64,000 nt of DNA from a bacterium (GCA_016700035.1 CP064998.1:59325-123324); one strand, 5' to 3'. Numbered from the stretch's first letter, positions 42,508 through 60,712 are shown. Notes: a model not told the origin generated them from the sequence alone. Numbers and translations: made by a program.

Positions 42508-44334
42508 ATGCGCGAGTCCGAAAAACAGTATAGTCCTCAGGATAGACAAGGTGCGGAAAACTTTTCGCGCGCGCAAGCATATCTGTCGCTGAAGGGAGAA
42601 GGACTGCAAACGCGTACTGAGCATTCGCGTAGTTTAGAGGATGCAGAGAAGTATCGTGCTCTTGAAACACTCAAGAGTTTGGGGGTACTCATACCGCTGA
42701 GTGAGCTAGAGATATACCATGGTCGTGCAGCGCATCCAGGCGAAACTGAGGCATGGGAGGTAGATCCGGCTTTTAGTAATGGCGGTAATAATACTGGTAA
42801 TTCAAACGTTAATAAACGCTCAACTCTATATACTGGACACCGGGAGATTGCAACCGATTTTGCTAGAGCAAGATCTGGTAGGACTCGAGATGGGTCTATT
42901 TCTCAGCCAGAAATTCATCGCATTGATACGCATGATTTGGACGCAACGGTATTTAATCACAACTTTGATATTAGTAAGCTAAGCCCTCAGCAGATAAGTG
43001 AATATACCCAAGCCTTGAGTAAGATTCTGGTATCGCCAACTGAAGGATCGCCGTTAGATTTTCAGGATCGAGCCGCTTGGGGGCAGCTTATACCACATAT
43101 TGCGTCCCTCGGGGAGCGTAGGTTCTTTTCGGATGATGATACGGATAGATTAGTCACTCAGTCAGGTTTATCTACCGAAGTGGTAACGCAATTAATTGGT
43201 GCAATAAATTCTCGACAAATGGCTAAAGTTAATCCGGGCTATTTAATATCAAGACTAGTGAATGGCTCAGAAGATCTTAGCCATGGTTATATGGTGTTGG
43301 ACGGAGAGCGAATAGATATGCCGCTTAATCTAGAATATGTACAAAAGTATCTGCATGAAGCGCATATTGTGGGCGTACAACAGCCCGTTTATTCTGCTAC
43401 TCTGGACCAAGATATAGAGATTGTATCTTTTTTTGATCTAGATGAAGTTAAGACCAGTCGGTCCAAAGAGCGCGAGCGCGAGCGTAGCTGGACGGCATTT
43501 GGTGGGTTGGCGCAGGCCATGGATGGCTTGGTGAGTCCAGAAGCCCAATCAGATAGTCCATTGATGGCACAACTAACTGATACCCATGCAAAGCCCAGAG
43601 ATATTATGCAAGATGCTCAGCGTGTACCGGGTTATGAGCAGATTTTTGCTGGCTCTGCCGGTGTATGGGAGGGCTTTACACTAGGTGAGCATACCGAAAC
43701 GGTGTTGCGCAATTTTGATGAAACCTACGCTGATCGGATGCCGGTAGGTTTATTGGCACCGATGCGGTTAGCTATTTTGACGCATGATATTGGTAAGAGT
43801 GAGACAGTTGCGAGATTGAGTAAATTAGAGCAATCAAAGATAAATACTCGTCAGGCAATTGATTTTATGGATAAACTTGGCGTAGATGAGCGACATCAGG
43901 ATGTAATTATTTCTATGGTTGGCTTAGGTGCGGATTTGGCATATTTAATTGATGTTAAGGGTGAGGGAGGTAAGGTGAAGCAGGCTATGTTTCAGCTAGC
44001 CCAGGGTACAATGCGAGAATTTTTTGGTCGCGAACCGAGTCGTGATGAAATGCGAGCTTTTGTTGAGATGTGCCGTACTCTACAGCGCTGTGATGGCGGT
44101 GCCTATACCAGCATGGCGGTAACACGTTCACGCGATGGTAATGGTTATTATCGTAACGCACCATCTTTTAACGCATCGTTTGCGCAACCAGTTGATGCAG
44201 GTCGGCGTAAGGTTGGTTTGCGTAAGCCGGGACAGCAGTCGGCTCAGCTCAGTCAGGCACCGAAGAGCATGGAGCCAGTCTCACGTATTCGAATGCAACC
44301 TAGAGGCGTCGCGGCAAAACCGCCAAAGTTATAG
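42508..44334 (+). CDS. large hypothetical protein with a C-terminal HD (metal-dependent phosphohydrolase) domain
   Basis: 608 aa. The H...HD pattern GEHTETV ... LAILTHDIGKSE is present. There is no TM or signal peptide, and the gene is GC-richer than its flanks. Confidence 0.5.
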   Translation: MRESEKQYSPQDRQGAENFSRAQAYLSLKGEGLQTRTEHSRSLEDAEKYRALETLKSLGVLIPLSELEIYHGRAAHPGETEAWEVDPAFSNGGNNTGNSNVNKRSTLYTGHREIATDFARARSGRTRDGSISQPEIHRIDTHDLDATVFNHNFDISKLSPQQISEYTQALSKILVSPTEGSPLDFQDRAAWGQLIPHIASLGERRFFSDDDTDRLVTQSGLSTEVVTQLIGAINSRQMAKVNPGYLISRLVNGSEDLSHGYMVLDGERIDMPLNLEYVQKYLHEAHIVGVQQPVYSATLDQDIEIVSFFDLDEVKTSRSKERERERSWTAFGGLAQAMDGLVSPEAQSDSPLMAQLTDTHAKPRDIMQDAQRVPGYEQIFAGSAGVWEGFTLGEHTETVLRNFDETYADRMPVGLLAPMRLAILTHDIGKSETVARLSKLEQSKINTRQAIDFMDKLGVDERHQDVIISMVGLGADLAYLIDVKGEGGKVKQAMFQLAQGTMREFFGREPSRDEMRAFVEMCRTLQRCDGGAYTSMAVTRSRDGNGYYRNAPSFNASFAQPVDAGRRKVGLRKPGQQSAQLSQAPKSMEPVSRIRMQPRGVAAKPPKL

Positions 44335-44438: not shown

Positions 44439-47400
44439 ATGCCAAATAAATCGATCGATAGCATTGGCCCAAAGCCAAACAAGAATAACATTAAGCCTGT
44501 TGCTGAGCATAGGGCTGGTGAGGTTGTGCGTCCAAAGGGTGCCCCCACTCAAGCCGGAGAATCGATTAAGCCAAAAGGTTATCAGGCGCCAAAGAAACTG
44601 GAATCAACAGTAGGTAAACCCGACCAGCCTAAGCGACCTGTCAATAAGAAAAAAGTAGCAGTTTTTGCTGGGTTTGTAGGGTTATTTATCCTAGTTTCTC
44701 TAGCTGCAGTTTGGTTATTGCGCGGTACAAATTTACTTAATTCAGTCGGTAAGCCAAAGCCGGCTGCTGGTAATTTTGCCGAGGTTGGAGATCAGGCTTC
44801 AACTTTGGATGAGTTTAATAAGGTCAAAGATGCTTATCAGGGTTTTAATAAAAAGCAGGCTACACCAGCGGATAGTCAAGTGGTGGCCGCTAATGCCTCT
44901 AGAGACCTTATTACTTATCTGGCTCTAAAATCTGAAGCTGTGAAGCAAGGGGTTGAGTGTACTTGGGAAATTGTTGACACGCGCATGGCAACCCAGTATC
45001 AGTCTTATGGTGGGAAGGAGGCCTTTTATGCTTATCTAGCCCAAGAATATGGTTGGAGTAAAGAGGTTAGTTTTATGAAGACCTGCACTGAATATTACCG
45101 AGAAGTATTGGCGCAAAAAGTGATTGGCGGAACGGATGCTTTTGGAGTATATATTCGCTGGGATAACATGGATAATGATTCCACAGCTCAACAAAGGGCG
45201 ACTTATGAACAAGAGGCAAAAGCTAGGTTAGAGCGTGATTTCTTGCCTCTATTTAAGAGCGGAGCCAGCAAAGAGGAGATTTATCGAGCTGCTGATATTA
45301 GTCCGTATAGTACAGATGTAGAATTTGATAAGAAGATGGAAACACCCGGTAGCCCCTGGGTGCGTACAGTTGAATACCCACGCTTAAATGAAACTACTTA
45401 TGCTAGCTTTCAGCAGTATCCAGAGGGTGAAAGGGATATTGACTACATATCAAAGCTAGCTGTTGGTGAGAATACAGTCGTATTTAAGTCTAAGGTTGGT
45501 TATTATGCTATTTTTCGGGCTACTAATAGGATTCAAGGAGAAGCAGGGTCTATAGATCAAGTTATACAAAAGTATATTGATGGCGCTAAGCTCAGTACAG
45601 AATATTATGCATTACCAAAGCCCAGTAGTAATGGACAAGAGCAGTTTGATATGCACGATCTCAAGCAAGATAATACAACCGGCATGCTAGATTCGATGCG
45701 ACAGGCTTTAGTGCCCACGGCCCGGGCAGTAAATTGCTTTACAAACCATCGGCTGCCAATGAGTATTATTTATACCGACTATGCTACAGGTCAGCTAATA
45801 CCACTAGAGCAAATACGTACTAATAAGGGTGCGCCAATTAGTACTTTGCAAATATTAAGTACCGGCAATGTACAAGCAGCCTGTAATGATGAGCCTGCCC
45901 CAATCCAGAACGCTTATGGTGTATTAAACTTTGGATACTGGGCTGGACGAGCTAGCTGGGATGTTTTTGACCACCGAAATAATCCATGGGCTTTTAATCT
46001 GAGTTGTTACACGAGCTGGGAATTTCGCTTTAATAAGGTATATGGCTATGAGCAGGTAAATTATCAAGACGCTAGTCAGTTTGAGGTTACACTTCTAACC
46101 AACCAGTGGATCGTTCAAAATAGGGCTTCGGCTTATACTGATCATTATCGGATTCCACCCGATCTATACCAGGGTATTGCTAACGGTGCTCTCGGATATT
46201 CCATTAATGTAAGGATGCGCAAAGAGCCTCCGACCACTGGATGGAATCCGCCACTTATGACAGTCTCGGGTGAAAAACAAGAGGAAGATGGAACAACTAT
46301 CGGTGCATATGCTGACAATACTGTGAGTGAACAGCCGAACAACTTTACTAGCAGTGGTCAACCCTATTCATTTCCTGGCTTGCGGGCCGATCAAGGCCAT
46401 GTGTTTACTGTAGAGACTGAGCCTAACTATGATGTACTGGGATATCGAATAAATGGCGGGCCAATCAACCAGTCTACAACCTATACTTATGTGGCTGGTA
46501 CGACTGGCGATGGTACTACATTAGATGTGGATTGGATTTTCCGTAGACGTCCAACTGTCAATCTATCGGTAACCTGTGCGCTTATTTCGGGTAATGTTAT
46601 TGGTGGTGGCGGTGCAACCATTGAGACATATGCTCGTGTGGGCGGCGCTGATTTGGTGGATGGTGCTGGCCAGCGGATTATTCAGGGGCGAAACTTTAGC
46701 TTTACAGTTCCTGAAGCGTATAAAGACGGTGTTGGTCGAACCGTTGAGCTTCGTTTGATTGTAGATGGCGTTGACTGGGGTGCCGCCGCCGCCACCACGC
46801 TCAGCTGTAATCGTAACGCATTGTGTAGCAATAATAATTTAGGTACTGTTTTCCCCGGTAATCGTGTAACTATTGGTGTAGGTGGACAAGAAGAGGGAAT
46901 ATCAATTGCCATGTCGAATAATGGTGAGTCGATTTGGAGTACTTATTCTACCGGTACTTATCAACTAGTTCTGACACCAGAGGCAGATATTTACTGGGAT
47001 ATTGTTGCTGGTACATCAGTTCCTGCAGGAGAGAAGATTTATCCTCAGCCTAACCCAATTAGTGGTAAGACTTTTGCACCTATTACCGTTACCCTTACGG
47101 CAAGCCCTTCTGATAGCACTACACCACTAGGTTTTCAAATGGCCTTTATACCAGATGGTGGCGGTGCAGCTCAACGATTTGGAACTGCTTGCTCAACTGA
47201 GTTACGCGTGCTTTCTTCCTATGGTCCGTGGCTCCGTACGCAAAATGGCAATGTTTCTGCAATGGGTGTTATCAAGGGGCAGGAGGCATTATCGCTAACT
47301 GGTGGTAATTTAGGTGGTCGACGAGCCGCCGGTTCAGCTGGAACGACAGCTGATGGGCAAAAAGATGATATCAATTTGGAGGCTACTTACTTATTGCTTT

Positions 47401-48431
47401 CCAAAGTAGCCGGCAATGGTCCATTCTGTAGCACCAATGCCTATATACTTGGTCGTGATGGTAATGCAGGTACGATGTCTGATTTGAATAGTTGTGATTT
47501 TAAACAATATAACTTTGCGCTAAGAGCTAATTTGGAGCGAGCCTTGAGTGCTCAGACGCCAGTATCCGAAGAGCTAATTTATCGGGAAGCTTTTCAGGCT
47601 TATGATGATGCCCCAACCAGTTGCCCGTCAACTGGGCCCGAGCCTAGTGGCCCTGCTAGATATGTTAATGGTGGAACTTATGATGGTAGTGGTGCATTGC
47701 CGGGTATCTCAGCTAATAACTGCCCCACTATAAGGGTGCTAGATGGGGTGCGTGACGGCAGCTATAAGACATTGGGTGCAAATCCAAGTTTACCTTTACC
47801 TGTCGTTCCAATGTTAGTTACGTCTAGGGGTACAGTTTTGGTAGATGGCGATCTTTACATTAATACAAATATTGTAAATGCGCCTTCTGCACCAAGTTTT
47901 AATCGAGATGACCTGAATGCCCTCAATCAACTGCCAAACCTAGGGATAATTGTAAAAGGTAATATTATTATCGACAAAGACGTTACTAGAATTGATGCCT
48001 CGCTCTATGCTAGTGGCAAGATAAAAACTTGCGAGAACTTATATAATCCAAGCTCATCGACAGAAAACGACCCAAATACTTCTAACGGTTTCAAGCTAGA
48101 AGGCGGTACCGTTGCAGAGAATACTCAGGCTGCACGTTGTAGTAAGCAACTCAAAATACATGGCGTGATGGCATCTAAGGGTGGCTTTATGCTGGGGCGT
48201 AATTTTGTGGACTTTAGTGCAATGGCTGGGGCTGGACGTATTGGTCGTTCTCGATTTAGTGCCGATTTTGAATATGATGCGCGACGTGGCCTGTATTATG
48301 GTCAGCCAGCCGAAGATGTTGTCTTTAATGGATTGATGCTGATTTTGCCGCCACCAGGCTTTGAGCATCTTTCAAACCCAGATTTCTTCCAGGCGCGCTA
48401 TACGTCTGAGAGCGCTCAACCTCGCTTCTAA
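44439..48431 (+). CDS. giant membrane-anchored surface protein A (1330 aa), paralog of the downstream gene
   Basis: About 70 aa of basic cytoplasmic N-terminus, a signal-anchor TM (VAVFAGFVGLFILVSLAAVWLL), then a G/T/N/S/Y/W-rich Cys-pair-containing ectodomain with beta-helix-like repeats. Conserved C-terminal tail PPPGFEHLS...QPRF. Confidence 0.85.
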   Translation: MPNKSIDSIGPKPNKNNIKPVAEHRAGEVVRPKGAPTQAGESIKPKGYQAPKKLESTVGKPDQPKRPVNKKKVAVFAGFVGLFILVSLAAVWLLRGTNLLNSVGKPKPAAGNFAEVGDQASTLDEFNKVKDAYQGFNKKQATPADSQVVAANASRDLITYLALKSEAVKQGVECTWEIVDTRMATQYQSYGGKEAFYAYLAQEYGWSKEVSFMKTCTEYYREVLAQKVIGGTDAFGVYIRWDNMDNDSTAQQRATYEQEAKARLERDFLPLFKSGASKEEIYRAADISPYSTDVEFDKKMETPGSPWVRTVEYPRLNETTYASFQQYPEGERDIDYISKLAVGENTVVFKSKVGYYAIFRATNRIQGEAGSIDQVIQKYIDGAKLSTEYYALPKPSSNGQEQFDMHDLKQDNTTGMLDSMRQALVPTARAVNCFTNHRLPMSIIYTDYATGQLIPLEQIRTNKGAPISTLQILSTGNVQAACNDEPAPIQNAYGVLNFGYWAGRASWDVFDHRNNPWAFNLSCYTSWEFRFNKVYGYEQVNYQDASQFEVTLLTNQWIVQNRASAYTDHYRIPPDLYQGIANGALGYSINVRMRKEPPTTGWNPPLMTVSGEKQEEDGTTIGAYADNTVSEQPNNFTSSGQPYSFPGLRADQGHVFTVETEPNYDVLGYRINGGPINQSTTYTYVAGTTGDGTTLDVDWIFRRRPTVNLSVTCALISGNVIGGGGATIETYARVGGADLVDGAGQRIIQGRNFSFTVPEAYKDGVGRTVELRLIVDGVDWGAAAATTLSCNRNALCSNNNLGTVFPGNRVTIGVGGQEEGISIAMSNNGESIWSTYSTGTYQLVLTPEADIYWDIVAGTSVPAGEKIYPQPNPISGKTFAPITVTLTASPSDSTTPLGFQMAFIPDGGGAAQRFGTACSTELRVLSSYGPWLRTQNGNVSAMGVIKGQEALSLTGGNLGGRRAAGSAGTTADGQKDDINLEATYLLLSKVAGNGPFCSTNAYILGRDGNAGTMSDLNSCDFKQYNFALRANLERALSAQTPVSEELIYREAFQAYDDAPTSCPSTGPEPSGPARYVNGGTYDGSGALPGISANNCPTIRVLDGVRDGSYKTLGANPSLPLPVVPMLVTSRGTVLVDGDLYINTNIVNAPSAPSFNRDDLNALNQLPNLGIIVKGNIIIDKDVTRIDASLYASGKIKTCENLYNPSSSTENDPNTSNGFKLEGGTVAENTQAARCSKQLKIHGVMASKGGFMLGRNFVDFSAMAGAGRIGRSRFSADFEYDARRGLYYGQPAEDVVFNGLMLILPPPGFEHLSNPDFFQARYTSESAQPRF

Positions 48432-48515
48432 AAGCTCCAACCACATCTTGTATGCAATAGTGTGTTCAGGTACGATATACATAAGCGTTTTTGAGGTTAG
48501 TTTGTTAGTTTATTT

Positions 48516-51500
48516 ATGAGTCCAAAGCCCATAGACCCCATTTCTCCAAGTCAAAAGGCTTCGGCCGAGTCAGCTGAGTCTATCATTCCACGGAATGCAG
48601 ATTCAGCTCAGGTTTTAGCAGAAGCCAAATCAAGACTAGAGTCCGCCAAAGAGGAACAATCTAGATCTCGCCGGAGGCTATTATTCTGGGGATTACTGGC
48701 TGGTTTGATCATATTTTTGGTTGGTGCTGGAGTTATTGCATATAAAGCATTAGAAGATAAAAAGCTGGCTGAAGATGAGTATGCGGTTATTGAGGGGCGA
48801 TCCATAAAACAGTCTGAGTTTGAAGCTCTGCGCGACGCATATATTCGTTATGATCAACAAAAAGGGCAAAGTGATAAACGTATATCTGAGAGGCGTGCTG
48901 CCGATGAGCTAATGACCAGAGTTGGATTAGAGGTACGGGCTGAGAAGTATGGTATAGGAGTTACTCAAGATGATATTGACTCTTATTTGGCGCCAGCGTA
49001 TTTGCAGTATGGGTCTAGGGATGGCTTACTAAGATACAACCAACATCTTTATGGCTGGGATGAAAAACCTCTATATCATAAAGCTAAGTTAGATTTATTA
49101 AAGCAAAAACTACAATCAAAGATAATTGCGGAGATGGATTTATTGGGTGTGTATATTAGGTGGGATAATCACATGGATAAGTCTGAAGAATTTCAAAAAG
49201 AATATGGGCGTAAGGCTGTTGAACGACTGGAAAAAGATTATCTTCCGAGACTCAATGGAGGCCAAGTCGCAGGTGACTTTATTAAAACAACGGACGTAAA
49301 CGCGTCTCTGCCTGTAGAATTGAATAACGAAAGGCTTAATAAAACTGACGACCCCATAGTACGTTATCTGGAGTTAAAGTCAGCGGTTAATGACCCTAAA
49401 AATGATCCTTTTCAGCACGGGCAGAAAGCTAGTGATGCAAAGTCCGCTTGGGCAGAGATAGAGAAGCTTGAGAAAGTAGGGGACACTACGCCGGTTTTCA
49501 AATCTGATAGTGGTATGTATTTAGCCTTGCGTATCGAAAGGAAGTCAGAAGGCGAATACATAAGCTATGAGTCATACCTCAAAAAAGCTATACAAGAGGG
49601 AAAAGTAGACAGCAGTTATAATGAACTACCAATACCGGATAATGGCCGCAACATTCTACCAACACCAACAAGTAGTGCGGATGTAAGTTTGCTTGCCAAG
49701 TTTCTACCAAAAGCTACTGCTTCAGGGTCGAGAGACTGTTGGGCACAAGACCCCCTTCAGTATGAGATGCGGCCAGCAGATGGTAGTGCGGGTTATGCGT
49801 CAATTACTAATAATCCATTTACGGTACTTGTAGTTCGTTCTGGATCCGATACGTGTATTCCGTATAATGGTTTTGGTTATTTTATGAATGCGCAAGGAAG
49901 ACAAGCGTGGACATCTCCGAATGTGCAGCACGGTATGGTGATACCGCTCAATTGTTATGGTGTAGTGTGGGATTTTGCTTGGTCAGCTCCTAGTGGCTAC
50001 CAGGGCTTTACCGCGGGTGATTATCAGGCTCCAAACAGAATATTAACCGGTTTTGGATCTGGTCTTGTATGGGCACCATCTGACATATCGGGGCTTTGGA
50101 GAAATGCGAATATCTATTATGGTATTGCAAACGGCGCTGGTCGCTATGCGGTAGCACCTATCTTTTATCCTGATGCACCACCCCCACCACCACCACCTCT
50201 CTACAATATTACCGGATGGAAAGCTGATCGCTACGGCAATGCAACGCCACAAGTTGCTGGTGCTGTAGTTCGAGATACTAGTGTGGGTGATTCAAGTGCG
50301 ACGCAACCATTTACGCTAAATGGAAGAAATCAAGCTCAAGACCATATTGTCCAAGCTCAGGATACACCAGACTGGACTGCGACTGGCTGGGAGCTAGTGA
50401 ATAATGGTACATCTGGTAATCAAAACTATTATGGTTTTCCGGCCAGTTCAACACCAGTTAATTCAACCCAATCAATGATTTTTCGTTATGAACCACGTCC
50501 ATCTAGCGTTAGAGCTGGGATACTTGTAAAAGATCCTTCTACGGGTGCTTTATCAAACCCATGCACACAGTCAGGTTATCAGAATGTACCATGTAGTAGC
50601 GGGACGAATGTTACCTTGCAACGTACCTTTAATTTACCGCCTGGTTTAGTAAATTCTTATTCAAATGCAACAATGAGTCAGACTACATCAAATGGGGCAG
50701 CTACATATGGGGGTCTTTATACTGGTAGTTATACAGCAACAGCTAGTGGTATTCCGGCAGGCTGGCAGATAGTGGGCACTTATCAGTGTAGCGATAATGC
50801 TGATCCAAGCAATTGTTTTCCAGCCGATGGGGCGGGTGTTAGCCCAAATTCTAATGGTGTGATGCCGATTTGGATAGAAGCTAATCGTAGTCGGCCGGTA
50901 TTTTACGTATTGCAACCAAATCAAATGGCACTAAAGGGAGATAAGAAAGGGCCGGGGACATTTACTAGTACTCAAAATAGCGATACTACCAACTTAGGTG
51001 TTGGGACTATAATGGTTGGCGCTCAGACGGTTTCTGGCAATAATCAGGCTGGAGCTTGGAATGCTCCACTTAACTTTAATCCTTCCAGTGGTGCATATAG
51101 TGTGCGTGCGGTAGCTCCGGCAGGCTGGCGAATTCGTGGCTATGCATTTTGTGCGTCAGCCTCAGCACTGTCTAGTTGTGCGTCAAATGATGCTGTTTTG
51201 GCGCCAAATAATCAAACTCAGGGCCAACTTATTCTTGGCGGCAATGATACAACAGATTATTCATTAAACATTGATTATACAAATCCAGATGGCCAAGCTC
51301 GGTTTAATGGTGTAGTAATTCCGGCTGGAGGACAACTTTGGGTAACCTTTTTCTTTAAGCCAGCACCAGTAACAATTCAGGTACGAGGCAAGATAGACAT
51401 GCAAGGAGGCAATGGTACCGCCAATACCGACCTTAATCCCTGCGCATTCAATGACTATAAAAGAAATCTTTGCACCCAGACTGAACTACAACCCGTGCGC

Positions 51501-54500
51501 ATGAATACGCGTGGTCTCCCTATTACTAGTAATCCAACGATGATTGATATTGATGATCCTGCGGGTGCATCTGGGGGTGGTGCTTGTGCGTCTAAGGATT
51601 ATGTGCCAACTAAGCCGGGTTATAATTATGGGAGTTTTGCCAGTTCGGGCTTTTACTGTACTAATGAGGGTGGTAACGGCAGTATTACTCAAGCCAAATT
51701 TATTACCGGTAACAGTCCTTTGCGCTATGGTATGACTTTAGATGCTAGAACGGGTGGCGTTGGCAATAATACTAATCCAGCAGAGAATAATCTTGCTATT
51801 GTTCGCAATGTTTATCCTGGTAAATATAGCTTTCAGATGAAAGGCCTACCACAATATAATGGAGAAGATGCTTACAATGTAGCACAAGCCACCTGTGCGC
51901 CAAATCAGCTAGATTGCTCAATGAGCACTGCGCCAATCAATAATGTTGATGGTTGTCTTTTAAATCATCGTCGACAGGCGGAGTATACGGCTGTCACGTA
52001 TTTTTTGTGGTGGCCTATCTATACACCAATTGTTGCACCTTATAATGCATCTGCCCTAAATGACCCAGCTGGTCAGAATTACTGTACTATTATGTGGTCT
52101 GGTGCACCAGGGGCAGATAATTGGCCAAGTGGAGGAACACCACAATCTTGGAATATTTCCGCTCAAAGACCACGCCAATGCCTGCTAACTAATGGCGTGT
52201 GGGCTTATAATCCACAATGGAATGCGGGCACGGGTAGCTATGGGATAGATGCAAGTGGTACATCGCCTTGCGGTTATCGTAAGGATGCTAAAACAACTGG
52301 CCCAAATACTTTTACAATGGGACTTCCAATAGATACTGGCTTCCGGGAGCAAGTATTCTATTATTCGCCCAAAATATTAGCCACAAATACAAATCTAACT
52401 TGTGATAATTATTCAGCTACTGTGGTATTTATGCCGGATCCTTCACGACCAGTGACGACATACTATCGATTTGGGCGGTATGGTCAGCCAGCCACAACTA
52501 CTTTAATGCGCACCGATAGTTCGACAGGTGGAGATGTGATGTTGGCTACAACTCAGACTAGTGGACCTAATGCGCATCAAATACGTATAGATATACCAAA
52601 ATATAATGGTCAGGGTGGAGAATTATTGAAGGATGGAGATCGTCGTTCGTTTGAGGTCTATGCTCGCTATGGTGATAGTTCTAGTAATAGCCCAGATGGC
52701 GACTTAGTAAATGGCTATGGTTCCGAGAGAGATTGGGGCTCAGCATTTGGATCTTGGAAGTATGCACCAGCTAGAATTTCTTCTTTAACACATCAGTGTC
52801 AGAATAATGCAACTTGTGATCAGGCTAGCTTCAATAATCAGCTCAATGCTATTGCTATTATGGATGCAGATGATCCACAAGCCAATACAATCGATGTGAC
52901 AGTGACGAACACCGGCCATAGCTTTTGGCAACAGAATGTAAATGAGAATGGTGCGTCAATTACAACTGGCCACGAACTGACAGTTACGGGGGGTACCTTA
53001 CTAGCTGCAAGTATAAATGATTCGCGTGGTTGGTATATTGCTGGGCCAGATTATCGCATGGCTGATGGGACGCAGGTTTATCCAGTCGCTTTAAATCCGA
53101 GTGCTTCAACCTATAAATTTACAATGCATATAAATCCGCCAAAAGATGGTGGTAGTAAGTTTACACTTGGTTTTCAAATGCGCCAGTACAAGCCAAGCTC
53201 TGGCTATACGGAAGTATTTGGTACAGCCTGCGAAGGGCAAATGGAGATCAAGGTTAGTTATAAGCCATGGTATCGAGTTCAAAATGGTAATGTAACGGCA
53301 CTGGGGGAGATTCGAGATCAGCCTGAATCTGCTCGAGGTATGTATAAGGCTGAGAATCGTACTAATAATAATCCATATCCAGGTAGTGTGGATAATGTAG
53401 CTAAGTTAAAAACTGACAGTGCCAAGCCAGTGATGAACTTGCATGCTCAATTTTCGGTTGTCGCCGAGGGTGGGGGGACAAACTTCTGCTCTACAAACTT
53501 TTATATGCTAGGCATTGCCGACCCACCAAATAGTTTTACGCCAAATGCTTCACAGCAGAGTAGAAAGTGTAGTTTTGGTGGTATGGATTTGAATATTCCT
53601 CAGGCTGAGGATTCTAATGGTGACGGTACAAAAGAGCTTAAAAATGATCAGCTGATTGTTACGGCTAATAACGCTTATCGCGATAATGGGCAGTGTGTTG
53701 ATGTAGGAAGCAATCCAGAAGATGATGGTGGCCCATATGAACTTTCAGCACCCACTAAATATTATCGGTCTTGGGAATCAGCGCCTTATGACGTGCCGAG
53801 TTTGAAGTGGAGTACTGAGCAAAAGCCAAATAATAGTGACGATGGCCCATTTGGGCGGCATGCTTCTGGTAATCCGGCTGAGCGAGGGTTGTATCTTGTA
53901 AATATCACCAATAATCCATTGCATCGTCCTTGCCCAACTATATTTAAGCTTGATACGCCATCAAATCCGTCCAATCAGTTTGTACAAAGTGGCTATCGAA
54001 GACTCGGCGGCTTCATTTATGGCGCTGGTCGCTCTACAATTCTTTCTGATCAAACCATATATATTACTGATAATATTACGGTTAGTATTCCGACATCACC
54101 ACCGTATAGCTTTCAGAGAAATGGAGTGCCAGATATGGCTGGGCTGAATGCAGTGCCAAATCTTGGCATTATATCGGAGGGTGATATTGTGGTGGCTAGT
54201 AATGTGGAAAGAATTGATGCCTCATTGTATGCCAAAGGCAGGATTATAACCTGTGATCAATATGTGCCAAACTCTGGGCTAAATGAAGATGCTGGTAAGA
54301 CCGATCAACCGGGCTCGACCGGCACCAAGTGGATTCGACGCGGTGCTGGCATTGGCTTGGATTCTAACCCACTAGCCAGTGAGACGACTGATCCAAATGT
54401 AATTGAGGCACCGAATGCTGATAATGCGGAAGCCAAAAAATGCGCAAACCGACTCAAGATCACTGGCAGTGTGACCGGTGGGTCTGGTTTTACTCTGGGG

Positions 54501-54863
54501 CGTAATCATATTGATTTTAGTGAAATGGTACAGCGTTGGGGTAATAACGAAGGTGGAGCTTTTGGTGGACAGTCGCCTCAGGAGTTTGGTAAGTTTTGTA
54601 ATTTGTCAGATGTGATTGGTATCCGTCGGGTATGTAATCTGTATGGTGTGCGCAAAGATTTTGATTCTCCTGATAATACAGGGGCTACCTACTGGCTAGC
54701 TGAAAAAGCCGGTTGGCCACAAAATTATTATACTGGTGGACCGGCAGAAGACTTTGTTGGTAACGGTATATCAAGCTTTATGCCACCACCTGGTTTTGAA
54801 AATATCAGTACATCTGCGCAAACTGCCAAGTATTATAAGAATACTGCCCGACCTAGGTTTTAG
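48516..54863 (+). CDS. giant membrane-anchored surface protein B (2115 aa), paralog of the upstream gene
   Basis: N-terminal cytoplasmic segment, a TM (LLFWGLLAGLIIFLVGAGVIAY), then an ectodomain sharing several colinear blocks with protein A (GVYIRWDN, LGFQM...FGTAC...PW.R.QNGNV, NLGII..G.I....V.RIDASLYA.G.I.TC, ..LKI.G.....GF.LGRN..DFS.M). It also has a poly-Pro stretch, internal repeats and a C-terminal tail PPPGFENIS...RPRF. Confidence 0.85.
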   Translation: MSPKPIDPISPSQKASAESAESIIPRNADSAQVLAEAKSRLESAKEEQSRSRRRLLFWGLLAGLIIFLVGAGVIAYKALEDKKLAEDEYAVIEGRSIKQSEFEALRDAYIRYDQQKGQSDKRISERRAADELMTRVGLEVRAEKYGIGVTQDDIDSYLAPAYLQYGSRDGLLRYNQHLYGWDEKPLYHKAKLDLLKQKLQSKIIAEMDLLGVYIRWDNHMDKSEEFQKEYGRKAVERLEKDYLPRLNGGQVAGDFIKTTDVNASLPVELNNERLNKTDDPIVRYLELKSAVNDPKNDPFQHGQKASDAKSAWAEIEKLEKVGDTTPVFKSDSGMYLALRIERKSEGEYISYESYLKKAIQEGKVDSSYNELPIPDNGRNILPTPTSSADVSLLAKFLPKATASGSRDCWAQDPLQYEMRPADGSAGYASITNNPFTVLVVRSGSDTCIPYNGFGYFMNAQGRQAWTSPNVQHGMVIPLNCYGVVWDFAWSAPSGYQGFTAGDYQAPNRILTGFGSGLVWAPSDISGLWRNANIYYGIANGAGRYAVAPIFYPDAPPPPPPPLYNITGWKADRYGNATPQVAGAVVRDTSVGDSSATQPFTLNGRNQAQDHIVQAQDTPDWTATGWELVNNGTSGNQNYYGFPASSTPVNSTQSMIFRYEPRPSSVRAGILVKDPSTGALSNPCTQSGYQNVPCSSGTNVTLQRTFNLPPGLVNSYSNATMSQTTSNGAATYGGLYTGSYTATASGIPAGWQIVGTYQCSDNADPSNCFPADGAGVSPNSNGVMPIWIEANRSRPVFYVLQPNQMALKGDKKGPGTFTSTQNSDTTNLGVGTIMVGAQTVSGNNQAGAWNAPLNFNPSSGAYSVRAVAPAGWRIRGYAFCASASALSSCASNDAVLAPNNQTQGQLILGGNDTTDYSLNIDYTNPDGQARFNGVVIPAGGQLWVTFFFKPAPVTIQVRGKIDMQGGNGTANTDLNPCAFNDYKRNLCTQTELQPVRMNTRGLPITSNPTMIDIDDPAGASGGGACASKDYVPTKPGYNYGSFASSGFYCTNEGGNGSITQAKFITGNSPLRYGMTLDARTGGVGNNTNPAENNLAIVRNVYPGKYSFQMKGLPQYNGEDAYNVAQATCAPNQLDCSMSTAPINNVDGCLLNHRRQAEYTAVTYFLWWPIYTPIVAPYNASALNDPAGQNYCTIMWSGAPGADNWPSGGTPQSWNISAQRPRQCLLTNGVWAYNPQWNAGTGSYGIDASGTSPCGYRKDAKTTGPNTFTMGLPIDTGFREQVFYYSPKILATNTNLTCDNYSATVVFMPDPSRPVTTYYRFGRYGQPATTTLMRTDSSTGGDVMLATTQTSGPNAHQIRIDIPKYNGQGGELLKDGDRRSFEVYARYGDSSSNSPDGDLVNGYGSERDWGSAFGSWKYAPARISSLTHQCQNNATCDQASFNNQLNAIAIMDADDPQANTIDVTVTNTGHSFWQQNVNENGASITTGHELTVTGGTLLAASINDSRGWYIAGPDYRMADGTQVYPVALNPSASTYKFTMHINPPKDGGSKFTLGFQMRQYKPSSGYTEVFGTACEGQMEIKVSYKPWYRVQNGNVTALGEIRDQPESARGMYKAENRTNNNPYPGSVDNVAKLKTDSAKPVMNLHAQFSVVAEGGGTNFCSTNFYMLGIADPPNSFTPNASQQSRKCSFGGMDLNIPQAEDSNGDGTKELKNDQLIVTANNAYRDNGQCVDVGSNPEDDGGPYELSAPTKYYRSWESAPYDVPSLKWSTEQKPNNSDDGPFGRHASGNPAERGLYLVNITNNPLHRPCPTIFKLDTPSNPSNQFVQSGYRRLGGFIYGAGRSTILSDQTIYITDNITVSIPTSPPYSFQRNGVPDMAGLNAVPNLGIISEGDIVVASNVERIDASLYAKGRIITCDQYVPNSGLNEDAGKTDQPGSTGTKWIRRGAGIGLDSNPLASETTDPNVIEAPNADNAEAKKCANRLKITGSVTGGSGFTLGRNHIDFSEMVQRWGNNEGGAFGGQSPQEFGKFCNLSDVIGIRRVCNLYGVRKDFDSPDNTGATYWLAEKAGWPQNYYTGGPAEDFVGNGISSFMPPPGFENISTSAQTAKYYKNTARPRF

Positions 54864-54951: not shown

Positions 54952-55989
54952 ATGGAATTATTCGTTGAAGATGAACATTATTTTGGAGTTGACCTCGGTA
55001 ACTCCGGTATCCGATTGGTTGAGCTTAAACTAATTCATGATAAGCCCACACTCGTTACTTATGGTGATATTGAATTACCGTTTGGACTGATGAGTTCTGA
55101 TTCTCCAGCTGATCAGGCGCGAATTTCAGAGATACTCAAAAAGCTGGTATCAGACGCTCGTGTGAGTACCAAAAATGTTGTAGCTGGTTTACCGGCTAGC
55201 AAAGTATTTGCCAGCGTGCTTAAACTGCCACAGATGGCTGATAATGAAATTGCCCACACTATTCGCTTCCAGGCCGATAAATATATTCCGATGCCAATTG
55301 ATCAGGTGAAGCTAGATTTTTTCCGTATAACTCGCGATAAGGAAGCTGAAGAGATCGATGTATTATTGGTTGCCACACCAACCAGTATTGCCAATAAATA
55401 CCTTAATATTTTCCAGCAAGCTGGACTGGAGTTGATGGCTTTAGATATTAATGCAATTGCTCAGTCGCGCTCGATGGTACCAAATGCTGATATTGATGTG
55501 GTGGTAGTAGATTTTGCTTCTTTAACCACTGATATTGGCCTAATATCGGCTGGAATTCCGGGACTGATTCGATCGGTTAATGTGGGTGCTAAATCTCTTA
55601 TTCGAGTGACATCTCAAAACCTTGGTCTCGATGAAGTGCAGGCCGAGCAGTTTGTGCGTAAGTTTGGCCTAACTCAAACTAAGCTAGAGGGGCAAGTTTA
55701 CCGCTCGATGAAGCCGTTACTTGATAATGTAGTAGAAGAGATTAAGCGCTCAATGGAGTTCTTTTACCAAAGTAACTCTGGCCGTAAAGTGGAGAAGATT
55801 GTTATTACTGGTGGTCCGGCAGCAATTCCAGAAATGCCGGTTTATCTTGCAAATGCACTGGGCTTACCCGTTGAAATGGGTAATCCATGGCAGAAGATTA
55901 GCTATGCCACTGAGTTTACAGACCGCTTGTCGGGTATGGCGTTAAGTTATTCCACATCGGTTGGTTTGGCGTTAAGGAATATGGTGTAG
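54952..55989 (+). CDS. pilM: type IV pilus assembly protein PilM (actin-like ATPase fold)
   Basis: FGVDLGNSGIRLVELK has an N-terminal actin-like fold. The ORF is 345 aa, first of the pilMNO order. Confidence 0.8.
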   Translation: MELFVEDEHYFGVDLGNSGIRLVELKLIHDKPTLVTYGDIELPFGLMSSDSPADQARISEILKKLVSDARVSTKNVVAGLPASKVFASVLKLPQMADNEIAHTIRFQADKYIPMPIDQVKLDFFRITRDKEAEEIDVLLVATPTSIANKYLNIFQQAGLELMALDINAIAQSRSMVPNADIDVVVVDFASLTTDIGLISAGIPGLIRSVNVGAKSLIRVTSQNLGLDEVQAEQFVRKFGLTQTKLEGQVYRSMKPLLDNVVEEIKRSMEFFYQSNSGRKVEKIVITGGPAAIPEMPVYLANALGLPVEMGNPWQKISYATEFTDRLSGMALSYSTSVGLALRNMV

Positions 55990-55992
55990 GCT

Positions 55993-56619
55993 ATGTCGGT
56001 TCGGATCAATTTGCTCCCCGAAGCCCGTATGATAAAGCTGAAAAATCAGCAAACCAAACGCTTGGTTACGGTGGTTTGCTTGGTTCTTTGCAGTAGTGTA
56101 GGGATTGTCTTAGTGGTATTACTCCTGCTTTTGGGTGCACGCAATATTCAGTTTGCTACTAACAAGGGAAATATCGAAGAGCTGAATAAAAAGATTGCTG
56201 CTAAAGCTGGTGTAGAGCAAGATGTGGCATGGTTTAATGGAGCTCTTACCGAAGCTGATTCACTTTCTAATAATCGAATTCTCATCTCGCAGCTTTTTGG
56301 TCAACTAGCTAATGCTGCACCTCCTGGCATTAAGATTGCAAGTCTATCGGTGGATCCAGAGTATAAGGTCAAAGCATCGGTTGAGGCGACTGACTTTAAT
56401 AATGTGGCACTCTTTATGAATGCCTTAAAGACTTATAATGTTGAGTTTAATCCGATTGCTGGTTTTGATAGGGTGCCAGTTTTTACCGATGTTGATGTTC
56501 AGGCTGTTACCAAGCGTAAGCAGACTGATAATGCCAACTTTGAAGTAAGCTTTAAAGTTGATGAGAAGCTAGTAAAGAAATTCCGTGAAGACAGTAAGGC
56601 GAATGAGGAGAATAAATAA
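55993..56619 (+). CDS. pilN: type IV pilus assembly protein PilN
   Basis: 208 aa. INLLP motif near the N-terminus, a single TM, then a periplasmic-type domain. Confidence 0.7.
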   Translation: MSVRINLLPEARMIKLKNQQTKRLVTVVCLVLCSSVGIVLVVLLLLLGARNIQFATNKGNIEELNKKIAAKAGVEQDVAWFNGALTEADSLSNNRILISQLFGQLANAAPPGIKIASLSVDPEYKVKASVEATDFNNVALFMNALKTYNVEFNPIAGFDRVPVFTDVDVQAVTKRKQTDNANFEVSFKVDEKLVKKFREDSKANEENK

Positions 56620-57356
56620 TGGCACCCACTAAGAAGCCAGCCACTCCTGTTGCTAGCAAAAAAAAGCTGGTTCCACCGCAAACTCCAGGTACGGAGGCTG
56701 CCATGCAGGGAATTCGCAATTATCTTATCATTGCGATTGGTGTTACGGTGCTGGTTGTTTTAGTTGGGGGTTATTTTATATATACTCTGGCGCAATCTAA
56801 TGTTAAGAAAGCCCTGGAAGTTCGAGCTCAGGAATATCAAATTAAGCTTTCGGAGAATAAAATTGCCAAACTCGATGAAGCTGAACCTGAGATCCTAAAA
56901 CTTAAACAAGCAGATGGCGATAAGCCATCAAGATTTGATTTTATTACTCAACGCACATTGCCAGAAAATGAAGATTTTGAAGCTATTTTAACTATCTTTA
57001 ACCGTCTCCAAAAAGACTATCAAGTAGATATTGAGTCTATTACTAAACCGGGCACCGCTACTGCTGGAGTTGCAACTACAGCAAGGAGCACACCAAACAC
57101 AACTGGTGCTGGCAAATCTCAGTCTAGTTTAATTGCAATTAAGGCCACTGGATCGCAAGAAGCAGTAATTAGCTTCTTACAAGCGCTAGAATCATCATCA
57201 CGTATCTTTGACTTTTCAACAATGAAGATTTCGAGTGAACAGGGTAGCTTTTCATTGGATATGCAGTACAAAATTTATGCCATGCCAAAACCTTCAATCA
57301 ATAGCACAGATGTAAAAATTGATGAATACGAAGCTGATAAAGGAAAATACGAATGA
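56619..57356 (+). CDS. pilO: PilO-like pilus assembly protein
   Basis: 245 aa. N-terminal TM plus coiled coil, and position after pilN. It overlaps pilN by TAATG. Confidence 0.55.
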   Translation: MAPTKKPATPVASKKKLVPPQTPGTEAAMQGIRNYLIIAIGVTVLVVLVGGYFIYTLAQSNVKKALEVRAQEYQIKLSENKIAKLDEAEPEILKLKQADGDKPSRFDFITQRTLPENEDFEAILTIFNRLQKDYQVDIESITKPGTATAGVATTARSTPNTTGAGKSQSSLIAIKATGSQEAVISFLQALESSSRIFDFSTMKISSEQGSFSLDMQYKIYAMPKPSINSTDVKIDEYEADKGKYE

Positions 57357-57604
57357 AAAAACGAGATATTATAGGGCTGGTAATAGCGGTTGCGCTAATT
57401 GCGATTACTGGAGTACTACTATATACACAATTAGCCCCCGCTCCAAAAGATACTGGTATATCGGTTAGCGTACCAGCTAAGGTGGCTGTGCCATTATCCG
57501 ATCCAAAAGATCAAGAAAAATTAACTGAGTTGGAGCGTTACGAGGACTTCTCAAAGCCACAGCAGTGTACGAACGAGACTTGTGGACGAGAGAACCCATT
57601 GTAG
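57353..57604 (+). CDS. small single-TM protein in the pilus operon (PilP-like or accessory, unknown)
   Basis: 83 aa with an N-terminal TM. It overlaps pilO by ATGA and ends with a Cys pair (CTNETC). Confidence 0.45.
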   Translation: MKKRDIIGLVIAVALIAITGVLLYTQLAPAPKDTGISVSVPAKVAVPLSDPKDQEKLTELERYEDFSKPQQCTNETCGRENPL

Positions 57605-57628: not shown

Positions 57629-59422
57629 ATGCTGACGTTAGAAAATCAAAAGATCATCGAAAATATGATTGTGCAGGGCGATATTGTCCCGCACGATGTG
57701 TTGGAGATTGCAAAATTGCGGTCCGCCAAAGAGAGCAAAGGACTTTTACAGGTATTATTAGATATGAAGGCTTTATCTGAGGATGATTCAGTTAAGCTAA
57801 TTGCTATTTCAAAAAAGATTCCCTTTGTTGATTTGATGCATCTGGATCGCCCTGTTGATCAAAAGGTTCTGGAGATGGTACCACTTGAAATTGCCAAAAC
57901 CTACATGGCCGTACCGTTTGGGGTGTCTAATAGCTCGTTAAATGTTGCATTGCTTGACCCAACTAATTTGCAGGCGATCGATTTTATATCGCGTAAAACT
58001 GGCTACACTATTAATCCATATATTGCTTCTCAGGCCGGTATTGATTTTGTGCTGGGGATGTATAAAGAGAAGTTTTCTCAAGAAGTATCAGAGGTTTTAA
58101 AGAATATTGCTTCGGCTCAAAAAGAAGAAGTTGAGGCTGAAAAAAAGACTGTTCAAGATCAGAAAAAGATCAACGACATTGTTCAGGATGCACCAATTAC
58201 TCGAGCCCTCAATACTATTTTAGAGTATGCAATTAACTCACGAGCATCAGATATTCATGTTGAACCCCGTCAAAAAGAGCTGAAGATTCGGTTTCGTGTC
58301 GATGGTATTTTGCAGGAAGTGATGACGTTACCAAAAACCACCGAAGCAGCCCTTATCTCTCGTATTAAAATTATGTCTAATCTCAAGATTGATGAGCACC
58401 GTATTCCTCAAGACGGGCAAGCGGTATATATTTTTGCTGGTCGCGAAGTTGATTTGCGTATTGCGATTGCGCCAATTAGCTATGGGGAACAAGTGGTAAT
58501 TCGTATTTTGGATAAGAACGCCCAAAATATTACTCTGGATACGCTAGGCTTTAGGGGGCGTAGTTTACGCCTTATTACATCTGGTATGCATAAGCCACAC
58601 GGTATGATTCTATCAACTGGCCCAACTGGTTCAGGTAAATCCACTACTCTGTATGCGGTGGTGGGGGCAATTAAATCGGTGGCAATCAATATTGTGACGC
58701 TTGAAGACCCGGTGGAATATAAAATGGAGGGTATTAACCAAATTCAGGTTAATACGGCGGTGGGGCTAACCTTTGCTAATGGTTTACGGTCTATTTTGCG
58801 TCAGGACCCTAATGTGGTGCTAGTGGGGGAGATTCGTGATGCCGAAACGGCCGATCTAGCCGTGCAGGCAGCGTTGACTGGACACACAGTACTTTCCACA
58901 CTCCACACCAACTCCGCAGCTGGTGTTTTACCACGTATGCTAGATATGAAGATTGAGCCATTTTTGATTGCCTCAACCGTCAACACTGTAATTGGCCAGC
59001 GCCTAGTGCGTCGCGTTTGTCAAAAGTGTAAGCAAGCTTATGCGGCGCCGGGCACAGCGGTGGAGCTAATTAATAAGATTATAGGTTCATTTTTACCTAA
59101 AACTCAGGCCGAAGTGCAGGCTAAAGAGCAAGAATATGGATACGAGGGTTTGCCACTCTATAGTCAAAACGCTTATACTTTATATAGGGGGGTAGGCTGC
59201 GACGAATGTAAAGATGGTTACTCTGGTCGTATTGGTATCTTTGAGGTGTTTGAGATGAATCCAGCGATGGAAAAGCTCTTGCTCAGTAGGGCAACCACCA
59301 ACGATATTCAGAACCAGGCAATCAAAGATGGCATGCTGACTATGCAACAAGATGGCTATCTAAAGGCATTAACAGGTGTGACCACCGTAGAAGAAGTGGC
59401 ACGTGTGGCAACCGATCATTAG
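57629..59422 (+). CDS. pilB: type IV pilus extension ATPase PilB (GspE family)
   Basis: N-terminal GSPII_E_N domain, Walker A GPTGSGKST, Asp/His boxes and tetracysteine zinc motif CQKCK...CDECKDG are present. The ORF is 597 aa. Confidence 0.9.
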   Translation: MLTLENQKIIENMIVQGDIVPHDVLEIAKLRSAKESKGLLQVLLDMKALSEDDSVKLIAISKKIPFVDLMHLDRPVDQKVLEMVPLEIAKTYMAVPFGVSNSSLNVALLDPTNLQAIDFISRKTGYTINPYIASQAGIDFVLGMYKEKFSQEVSEVLKNIASAQKEEVEAEKKTVQDQKKINDIVQDAPITRALNTILEYAINSRASDIHVEPRQKELKIRFRVDGILQEVMTLPKTTEAALISRIKIMSNLKIDEHRIPQDGQAVYIFAGREVDLRIAIAPISYGEQVVIRILDKNAQNITLDTLGFRGRSLRLITSGMHKPHGMILSTGPTGSGKSTTLYAVVGAIKSVAINIVTLEDPVEYKMEGINQIQVNTAVGLTFANGLRSILRQDPNVVLVGEIRDAETADLAVQAALTGHTVLSTLHTNSAAGVLPRMLDMKIEPFLIASTVNTVIGQRLVRRVCQKCKQAYAAPGTAVELINKIIGSFLPKTQAEVQAKEQEYGYEGLPLYSQNAYTLYRGVGCDECKDGYSGRIGIFEVFEMNPAMEKLLLSRATTNDIQNQAIKDGMLTMQQDGYLKALTGVTTVEEVARVATDH

Positions 59423-59446: not shown

Positions 59447-60712
59447 ATGCAGCCAACAGATCCAAACAGCCCAGCCCAGCCCAGCGGAATTCCTATTGAT
59501 GGAGTAAGTGGGGTAGTTTCTAGTGTACCGCCAGCAGCCCAAACTCAAACTCCGGCTCCGGTAGCTCCAAGCCAAAGCCCCGCACCGGCTCCAGCTGCAG
59601 AAGTAAGTGCGGCCGATCAAGTGCACCAGATGGATTCGAGTCAACATGCCGGCAAGCTTTCCATCGAGCCGTATTTGGAGGAAGTTATCCGTCGAGATGC
59701 TTCAGATATCCATATTCAGGTTGGCTTACCACCAATGTTGCGCGTTGACGGGGCATTGGAACCAATTAAAGATGTGGAACCACTGACTGCCGAAGGTATT
59801 GATGATATTATTTTTAGCCTCCTCGATGATGATCAACGCGAAGTGTACCTGAAAGATAAAGAAATTGACTTTTCTTTTGCGTATGGCGATTTGGGTCGTT
59901 TTCGTGTTAATGCCTTCCACGAAAAGGGTAACCCAGCTGGTGCGTTTCGACTTATTCCAAACAAAATTCGGACCGTAGAAGATCTTGGTTTACCGCCGAT
60001 TATGAATAAGCTAACCGAATTTCCGCGTGGCTTGGTGCTGGTTACTGGCCCAACTGGTTCGGGTAAATCTACTACCTTGGCTGGTATGCTCGATAAAGTG
60101 AATCGTGAGCGGGCGGTGCATATCATCACCATTGAAGATCCTATCGAATATCAGCATCATCATAAGAAATCTATTGTGGTTCAGCGCGAAGTACACTTTG
60201 ATACCAAGAGCTTCTCCTCCGCACTTCGCTCCAGCTTGCGGGAAGATCCCAACGTAGTGCTTATCGGTGAGATGCGCGACCTAGAAACTATCTCCACCGC
60301 CATTACGGTGGCAGAAACTGGCCACTTGGTGTTTGCCACACTTCACACTAACTCGGCAGCTCAGTCGATTGACCGTATGGTAGATGTTTTCCCACCCCAC
60401 CAACAGCAGCAAATCCGTATTCAGTTATCTAGCGTATTGCAAGGGATTGTGGCGCAACGACTCATTCCGATGATTGGTGGTGGCCGTATGGCGGTGGCAG
60501 AAATTCTAGTGGTTACTCCAGCTGTACGTAATATTATTCGTGAAGGCAAAACCCACCAGCTCGATGCTGTTATTCAAACTGGTGCCGAATACGGCATGCA
60601 GTCCATGGACGCTACACTTGCACATCACATTCACGAGGGTAAGATTAGCTATGAAGAGGCCAAGAATTATGCTGTTAACTTAGAGGAGTTAGATCGCTTA
60701 ATGCGACACTAA
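59447..60712 (+). CDS. pilT: type IV pilus retraction ATPase PilT with a Pro/Ala-rich N-terminal extension of about 60 aa
   Basis: PilT core DIHIQVGLPPMLRVDG, Walker A GPTGSGKST, and the AIRNLIRE-type motif (AVRNIIREGK) are present. SD aagagga precedes the annotated ATG. Confidence 0.85.
   Translation: MQPTDPNSPAQPSGIPIDGVSGVVSSVPPAAQTQTPAPVAPSQSPAPAPAAEVSAADQVHQMDSSQHAGKLSIEPYLEEVIRRDASDIHIQVGLPPMLRVDGALEPIKDVEPLTAEGIDDIIFSLLDDDQREVYLKDKEIDFSFAYGDLGRFRVNAFHEKGNPAGAFRLIPNKIRTVEDLGLPPIMNKLTEFPRGLVLVTGPTGSGKSTTLAGMLDKVNRERAVHIITIEDPIEYQHHHKKSIVVQREVHFDTKSFSSALRSSLREDPNVVLIGEMRDLETISTAITVAETGHLVFATLHTNSAAQSIDRMVDVFPPHQQQQIRIQLSSVLQGIVAQRLIPMIGGGRMAVAEILVVTPAVRNIIREGKTHQLDAVIQTGAEYGMQSMDATLAHHIHEGKISYEEAKNYAVNLEELDRLMRH

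Follow-up and report, generated by a model that had tools for sequence, protein, structure and literature searches.

PilC/PilY1, a protein of the type IV pili (T4P) of Neisseria and Acinetobacter, uses its last ~10 residues to complement PilK by donating a strand, and these residues are essential and partly sufficient for pilus initiation (10.64898/2026.02.14.705861). MshQ, an unrelated protein of ~1200 amino acids (aa), is predicted to complement likewise (10.64898/2026.02.14.705861). The solenoid of ComZ resembles ice-binding proteins, and its only possible site is the pilus tip (PMC6561018). Cyanobacterial PilX proteins all bear such a solenoid, which has been proposed to substitute for the PilY1 'tip plug' (10.64898/2026.02.12.705559). 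Here, two giant tandem genes, A and B, are described, which lie directly before the T4P operon in a stretch of bacterial DNA of 64,000 nucleotides (GCA_016700035.1, CP064998.1:59325-123324; hereafter the window, from whose first letter all positions are counted). Each of them is a fused two-gene cassette, joining a membrane-anchored PpiD/SurA-like chaperone to a secreted signal-peptide protein, and both belong to an undescribed protein family of Saccharibacteria/Patescibacteria. Their layout is as follows.

44439..48431, plus strand: gene A, 1330 aa, giant envelope protein, fusion of anchor/chaperone and C-terminal module (open reading frame (ORF) call, BLASTP)
44439..44738, plus strand: A residues 1-100, basic cytoplasmic tail (MxKSIDSIGP[KR]P...), then a single transmembrane (TM) helix, 70-100 (hydropathy, conservation)
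44739..45623, plus strand: A ~101-395, PpiD/SurA/PrsA-like chaperone module with SurA_N-like helices and a parvulin-like subdomain
45624..45722, plus strand: A 396-428, disordered junction (predicted local distance difference test, pLDDT, <50)
45750..47213, plus strand: A ~438-925, beta-sandwich (CnaB/Ig/FN3-like) domains with conserved cysteines
47214..48428, plus strand: A ~926-1330, C-terminal module (C-module), predicted beta-solenoid
48306..48428, plus strand: A 1290-1330, conserved extreme C-terminal tail PAEDVVFNGLMLILPPPGFEHLSNPDFFQARYTSESAQPRF (column conservation)
48516..54863, plus strand: gene B, 2115 aa, paralog of A whose middle region is much extended (ORF call, BLASTP)
48516..49640, plus strand: B 1-375, cytoplasmic tail (MSPKPIDPIS...), TM helix 53-80, SurA_N-like chaperone module (sub-threshold Pfam, hydropathy)
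53160..54860, plus strand: B 1549-2115, C-module carrying large insertions and closed by the tail PAEDFVGNGISSFMPPPGFENISTSAQTAKYYKNTARPRF (54741-54860)

The preliminary description of this DNA had placed two ORFs of 1330 and 2115 aa at exactly these positions, immediately 5' of the pilM operon, and the same calls were obtained here, with gaps of 84 base pairs (bp) between A and B and 88 bp between B and pilM. The product of A is 100% identical to the NCBI protein IPM44_00545, and orthologs of B, of 2120-2230 aa, occupy the same gene position. A and B are old tandem paralogs. BLASTP aligns them colinearly over their full length in two high-scoring segment pairs, one for the C-terminal halves (expect value, E, 3e-45) and one for the N-terminal halves (E 8e-39), and their best score of 178 bits compares with at most 31 bits for 30 shuffles of B. 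Each protein has one hydrophobic segment (A 70-100, B 53-80) with a basic stretch N-terminal of it, as judged by hydropathy, and the rest is rich in G/A/S/T/N, with 15 cysteines in A and 31 in B. The earlier picture of colinear duplicates with a basic N-terminus, a single TM helix and a cysteine-bearing ectodomain is, therefore, retained. As for the extras it had ascribed to B, the PPPPPPP run exists, beginning at residue 555, but the internal repeats did not stand: GWQIVGTYQC and GWRIRGYAFC (B 749 and 870) share a short motif only, and BLASTP of B against itself gave no significant internal repeat at E<=0.01.

The cassette structure can be read from other lineages, many of which encode the N-terminal part in a small gene of its own; the stop codon of this gene overlaps the start of the signal-peptide C-module gene or lies right next to it. 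These separate proteins show the cytoplasmic MxKSIDS[IL].. motif and a TM helix, with or without a SurA-like domain. The split pairs comprise 373+1754 aa in loci L003-5, 363+>436 aa in L006, 238+829 aa in L023, 93+808 aa in L024, 227+842 and 343+1079 aa in L025, 91+901 aa in L032, 190+836 aa in L035, and 296+632 and 329+1943 aa in L036; in L033, the small upstream gene is absent. The counterpart of B 1-375 is a gene of its own, of 363-373 aa, in L003-6, and in A the place of the split is taken by the disordered linker. A P-x-A-x-A motif is retained at the junction of the fused proteins (VPTARA in A, LPKATA in B); in A, it spans residues 426-431 and straddles the end of the junction, where the genes of other lineages split. 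Judging from the sequences, the counterpart of this motif in the split forms would be their signal-peptidase region (..SPKAEA, ..APKAQA). Regarding the chaperone part, the N-terminal module of B matches SurA_N_2 (E 3.8e-5) and SurA_N_3 (E 1.2e-4), both under the Pfam gathering score, and the separate small protein of L003 matches SurA_N_2 (E 3.1e-5). A PpiD-like foldase fused or coupled to a single giant client is unusual in itself.

As A and B are each a fused cassette, the tandem duplication was a duplication of the cassette. One copy per genome is found in L016-18, L022-24, L031-33 and L035, and two copies in this window, L001-15, L025 and L026. In L027/L030 (a single contig, Ga0105047_10000532), three copies stand in a row between ychF and pilM. 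A protein of 1298 aa from a 6.9-kb Logan contig (P0008) looks like a mosaic of the two paralogs: its cytoplasmic tail and its C-terminus, which ends in PRL, are of the A type, and its chaperone module is of the B type (76% identity over 31% of B). It represents either paralog recombination or a chimeric assembly.

The related loci from species-representative genomes are all titled Candidatus Saccharibacteria or Patescibacteria. Since these relatives share 77-96% identity with the window in PilM, PilB and RecA, the window DNA belongs to a Saccharibacterium, in line with the origin considered in the preliminary description and with the identity to IPM44_00545, a protein from a metagenome-assembled genome. 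The pilus genes that follow B are listed below.

54952-55989, plus strand: pilM (Pfam PilM_2, E 8e-46)
55993-56619, plus strand: pilN (Pfam PilN, E 1.7e-5), with an INLLP motif at its start
56619-57356, plus strand: pilO-like gene
57353-57604, plus strand: ORF of 83 aa with a single TM helix, between the pilO-like gene and pilB, without a Pfam match
57629-59422, plus strand: pilB
59447-60712, plus strand: pilT
60730-61974, plus strand: pilC
62049-62453, plus strand: major-pilin-like gene with a class III signal
62533-63333, plus strand: prepilin peptidase gene (pilD)
63387-64000, plus strand, running off the window end: pilin-like ORF, in which ..RPG directly precedes ISLVEVIMVLGI.. (..RPG / ISLVEV..), with a weak N_methyl match (E 0.0034)

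Linkage was surveyed with tblastn maps of all loci, using the window proteins, and with gene tables. One or more C-module genes stand directly before pilM in ~30 loci, i.e., in every locus that reaches the neighbouring gene, so that the adjacency first seen in the window extends to relatives down to ~25% identity. The shared downstream order is pilM-N-O-(79-95-aa ORF)-pilB-pilT-pilC-pilA-pilD, and the usual upstream order is recA-recX-..-rpsF-ssb-rpsR-efp-..-ychF(-). The linkage to pilM holds for members at E 1e-21 to 1e-30 (25-30% identity), and is kept in L035 despite unrelated upstream genes (MFS, HAD, peptidase C39). Two distant members, P0146 and P0148 (E ~1e-15), have aberrant tails. P0148, from locus L036, is encoded inside another T4P cluster, where pilD and three N_methyl pilins immediately precede it; this position is PilY1-like, as in operons of the fimU-pilVWXY1E type. 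A second cassette of the same locus lies between pilC and pilA. The 369-aa gene that follows P0148 has an N-terminus that appears PilX_N-like by eye, and Pfam gives it no support.

In every carrier genome examined, the family heads the pilMNO block, and it could encode a component of the pilus machine itself: a collar, conduit or alignment extension through the wall or S-layer, which would replace parts of the PilP/PilQ/TsaP type, be tethered by the TM helix, and be coupled to the cytoplasm by the conserved N-terminal tail. A big rigid solenoid with beta-sandwich spacers could span the envelope, and the conservation of MxKSIDSIGP.. in fused and separate anchors alike suggests a cytoplasmic partner. 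Nevertheless, the middle regions are non-homologous and vary from ~200 to 1500 aa, the copy number varies from 1 to 3, L033 is without an anchor gene, and the slot is empty in the cultured S. epibionticum (Southlakia), despite its essential T4P genes. The cytoplasmic motif of A and B also differs from INLLP, the PilM-binding motif of PilN. A machine component is, thus, considered distinctly improbable. The cytoplasmic tail deserves a description of its own: over A 1-45 (44439-44573), fused and separate anchor proteins share, to a striking degree, the pattern MxKSIDSIGP[KR]P.K...KP...HKAGE..RP.G....AGE..KP, and the N-termini of more distant members read MNDI.PPK.. or MDIKKP...

The extent of the family was determined with a profile of the C-module alignment, searched exhaustively against 1.84 billion cluster representatives. 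At E<=1e-3, this search matched 2209 proteins, of which 201 remained at E<=1e-10 and 101 at E<=1e-30, and the C-module occupied the C-terminal end of the protein in every match. The family, thus, amounts to ~2200 clusters at 50% identity. Genome and metagenome locus scans with the same alignment reached Saccharibacteria-like members only, the taxonomic placement given here being that of these members. Word-indexed homolog searches returned 7-12 proteins each, the family being visible only by exhaustive profile search. The clusters are named 'hypothetical', with one 'carboxypeptidase regulatory-like domain', and the family is absent from the Pfam and NCBIfam libraries. It is also without mention in the TM7x pilus study (PMC11623550) and in the S. 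epibionticum pilus genetics (PMC10633639). TM7x has two modular pilins, PilX1 and PilX2, in which lectin-like and propeller domains occur (PMC11623550); PilX1 was considered as a family member and ruled out, its domains being that of a pilin and one of the jelly-roll or lectin-like kind.

Termini were surveyed in the best 150 profile hits together with earlier finds (164 proteins). Ordinary signal peptides were found in 88 of them, and 44 have the 'tail + TM' type of N-terminus seen in A and B. A prepilin motif of the G[FMLIVY][ST][LI][ILVP]E type occurs within the first 60 residues of none of the 164, and the Pfam N_methyl model matches neither A nor B. At the other end, A and B both terminate in PAED..NG....PPPGFE, ~20 residues, and PRF-COOH. 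The PRF terminus is present in 89/164 family proteins (PKF in a further 10), and PPPG lies 26-28 residues from the end in 104/124 motif-matching proteins. Over 127 representatives, the tail consensus is PAE-x-I-..-G-....-PPPG-[FLI]-[DE], followed by ~10 variable residues and [LV]-[KQR]-[YIL]-[DN]-x-x-[GS]-E-[YLF]-x-P-R-[FL]-COOH; 3.3-4.3 bits are carried by the closing P, R and F/L, which stand at a fixed distance from the COOH group. This end is the most conserved short stretch outside the solenoid core, and the last 16 residues of A have pLDDT <50 in the monomer model. The tail shared by A and B, therefore, marks a large family and keeps a fixed position in it. It had been described from the window as unlike LPXTG or PEP-CTERM, which is correct: the 26-28 residues after PPPG are polar and PRF-ended, and as no hydrophobic helix follows them, the tail is not of the sortase, exosortase or archaeosortase type. 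The tripartite signals of LPXTG, PEP-CTERM, PGF-CTERM and GlyGly-CTERM proteins, in which a motif precedes a hydrophobic TM helix and a C-terminal basic cluster, are lacking, the sole hydrophobic segment of A and B being N-terminal.

The tail might instead be a recognition peptide for the cognate PpiD/SurA-like module, a role that would be compatible with the other explanations discussed here. By eye, it resembles the SurA-binding peptide WEYIPNV. Yet it is equally conserved where the upstream gene encodes only 91-93 aa and lacks a chaperone domain (L024, L032), or where this gene is missing (L033); the tail, thus, tracks the T4P linkage and not the chaperone partner. In addition, S. epibionticum encodes a stand-alone protein with SurA_N and peptidyl-prolyl isomerase (PPIase) domains, SEML1_0121, shortly after its pilus locus (PMC10633639), so that the pairing is not exclusive. 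A chaperone tag is accordingly rated as very improbable.

Sequence methods tie the C-module to no curated family or Protein Data Bank (PDB) entry. Pfam and NCBIfam scans of A, B and 28 other family members gave no above-threshold match, SurA_N being hit weakly. PDB sequence-profile searches with three family alignments yielded nothing, or a chance peroxiredoxin at E >=0.013. Among 18 C-modules, the ice-binding family DUF3494 was not matched at E<=1, and DUF7305 gave sub-threshold hits in 3/18 (best E 0.0029). Structure prediction was more informative about the fold. In the AlphaFold2 (AF2) model of A 700-1330 (mean pLDDT 69), residues 700-925 form two confident Ig/FN3-like sandwiches, which were also recovered by Foldseek, whose search against the PDB returned tandem Ig/FN3 matches only. 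The C-terminal module is modelled with moderate confidence, except that A 926-1027, containing the PW..QNG and FCS.N.Y motifs, has pLDDT <50 and no defined fold in the model. Further invariant motifs of the C-module are CP, PNLGII..G.I.I...V..IDA.LYA.G.I.TC and GRN. A fold search of the C-module matched the beta-solenoids of ice-binding proteins, ComZ and tapirins, and, at lower scores, the beta-helices of two-partner-secretion proteins and autotransporters. The conserved C-terminal part is, thus, predicted to be a beta-solenoid of the ice-binding-protein/ComZ/tapirin type, on the strength of this model. The preliminary description had read the block NLGII..G.I.....V.RIDASLYA.G.I.TC as beta-helix-like, which the fold search backs. 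It had also held that no adhesin family could be assigned; this stands for sequence families, but the C-module has a recognisable predicted fold, and the first ~300 residues of the ectodomain appear to have a chaperone fold rather than that of an adhesin.

The tapirin matches raise another explanation, namely that A and B are envelope-held adhesins, co-transcribed or co-regulated with the pilus, which would act outside the filament by binding host-cell or matrix polymers. They would be retained by the N-terminal anchor in this genome and by non-covalent binding in the split forms, and the roles of the C-module and tail would lie in folding, in attachment to the wall or S-layer, or in oligomerisation. 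The TM anchor, the tapirin fold matches and the dispensability of the family fit such a role. However, a free adhesin needs no invariant extreme C-terminus, and the known wall-sorting signals do not fit. The place before pilM, or after the minor pilins in L036, survives synteny change and is tighter than co-regulation requires. Moreover, the tapirin similarity scores below those to ice-binding proteins and ComZ. Adhesins standing apart from the filament are, therefore, held to be unlikely.

By analogy with the systems described above, A and B are most likely T4P-associated extracytoplasmic proteins, acting as tip adhesins in the manner of PilC/PilY1 and MshQ, with a rough probability of 0.4. 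This is favoured because of the T4P linkage, Sec export, the combination of a solenoid with variable domains, the invariant C-terminus, the chaperone partner, the variation in copy number, and the fact that one cultured lineage dispenses with the family and has modular PilX-type pilins in its place. The passenger would be a functional analogue of PilC/PilY1/MshQ, exported by Sec and made of variable beta-sandwich domains, the conserved solenoid and a ~12-residue invariant peptide, ..E[YF]xPRF-COOH. Its solenoid would cap the pilus tip, as proposed for the solenoids of ComZ and cyanobacterial PilX, and the extreme C-terminal peptide would be added in trans to an apical minor pilin, whose beta-sheet it would complete. 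The solenoid of ComZ and PilX sits before the last pilin strand, and we infer that the same arrangement of solenoid plus terminal strand is kept here without the pilin domain, in trans as with PilY1 and PilK. The upstream or fused chaperone module would fold or hold the passenger at the membrane until it is loaded, and a fused passenger would then have to be released from its anchor. The variable N-proximal domains may bind the host or a substrate, an adhesin function that is plausible by analogy, and the one to three paralogous cassettes per genome could provide alternative specificities.

Several observations weigh against pilus-tip adhesins. Both A and B keep an N-terminal TM anchor, from which a protein bound for the tip would have to be freed, presumably by processing at the junction. 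An apical minor pilin lacking Glu5, which would act as the acceptor, was identified neither in the window nor in the related loci. The distant member P0146 is encoded between dprA and topA, away from T4P genes. Finally, in S. epibionticum ML1, ychF and pilM (SEML1_0103/0104) are neighbours: ychF ends at 103880 and pilM starts at 103892, 11 bp apart and with no gene between them (PMC10633639). Most T4P genes of this organism are class I essential. The empty slot next to essential T4P genes indicates that the family is not required for pilus assembly in all Saccharibacteria, and the family is accessory at the phylum scale.

T4P are essential for the episymbiotic life of cultured Saccharibacteria. 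Locked into the operon, with variable copy numbers and ectodomains, A, B and their relatives are concrete candidate host-range determinants in environmental Patescibacteria. It is possible, though doubtful, that the family supplies the PilY1-type tip module so far missing in environmental Saccharibacteria, perhaps also in other Patescibacteria, in which a non-pilin solenoid 'plug' would be delivered by a dedicated, in many cases fused, PpiD-like chaperone and docked by strand complementation in trans via ..E[YF]xPRF-COOH, interchangeable N-proximal domains setting the host that is grasped. If true, the principle proposed for Proteobacteria, that the terminal strand of a large adhesin licenses or anchors the tip complex, would extend to a divergent phylum and a different fold.

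Other features of the locus concern the pilus genes and the upstream flank. The position of the 83-aa ORF is occupied by a gene of 79-95 aa in the related loci with gene tables; this ORF has a CxxxxC pair at its end, and may encode an unrecognised small subunit of the pilus machine. The ORF at 63387 probably corresponds to the first of the minor pilin genes located behind pilD in relatives: L023, L032 and L033 have two or three pilin-like genes after pilD, all with Glu5. Upstream, the segment 36878-42426 has the order recA-recX-(PRC-like ORF, minus strand)-rpsF-ssb-rpsR-efp-ychF(-), which almost all of the related loci also show ahead of their pilus operon, and 'T4P locus two' of TM7x has been described as containing recAX (PMC11623550). 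Between ychF and A, a 608-aa ORF (42508-44334, plus strand) was compared with A and B as a potential third paralog and rejected; since it is missing from most relatives, it appears as an insertion in the slot. It has no Pfam or NCBIfam match, and contains an HD-like 'LAILTHDIGK' stretch. A 212-aa HD-domain gene takes its slot in L006, and a 50% identical homolog lies ~3.6 kb upstream of the C-module genes in L015. Promoter and terminator scans gave no signal above shuffles, the A-B and B-pilM gaps being without a terminator, and the 64-kb window holds no tRNA or Rfam feature.

Compared with known systems, the family resembles PilC/PilY1 and MshQ in consisting of large non-pilin proteins that are exported by Sec and encoded in the pilus cluster. 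As in PilC/PilY1, a conserved C-terminal domain is combined with N-terminal regions that vary in length and lack homology (total protein length ~600-2200 aa across the family), and the extreme C-terminus is fixed and conserved. It differs from PilC/PilY1 in showing no sequence similarity to them in the Pfam/NCBIfam scans of A, B and the 28 members, and in its conserved domain, a predicted beta-solenoid instead of a beta-propeller. Its gene stands before pilM and not, as that of PilY1, after the minor pilins, except in L036. Many members also carry, or pair with, a TM-anchored chaperone module, and the docking of the tail is putative. ComZ of Thermus thermophilus and cyanobacterial PilX have a pilin or pseudopilin domain with its N-terminal helix, whereas the family has none, and the PDB profile search detected no sequence similarity between them. 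With the tapirins of Caldicellulosiruptor, the family would share a beta-helix, which is only predicted here, and it shares the lack of a known anchoring motif and a place next to a T4P locus in a monoderm. Its anchor part appears like PpiD in its N-terminal TM helix, SurA_N-like helices and parvulin-like subdomain, with Pfam scores below the gathering thresholds; unlike PpiD, the module is fused or translationally coupled to one giant client, and its cytoplasmic tail, which is conserved, has no equivalent in PpiD. Proteins of this kind, large and non-pilin or bearing a solenoid, are already known from the tips of type IV filaments; what is new in this family is its sequence, without detectable relation to PilY1, ComZ, tapirins and DUF3494, its position at the head of pilMNO, and its coupling to a PpiD-like foldase.

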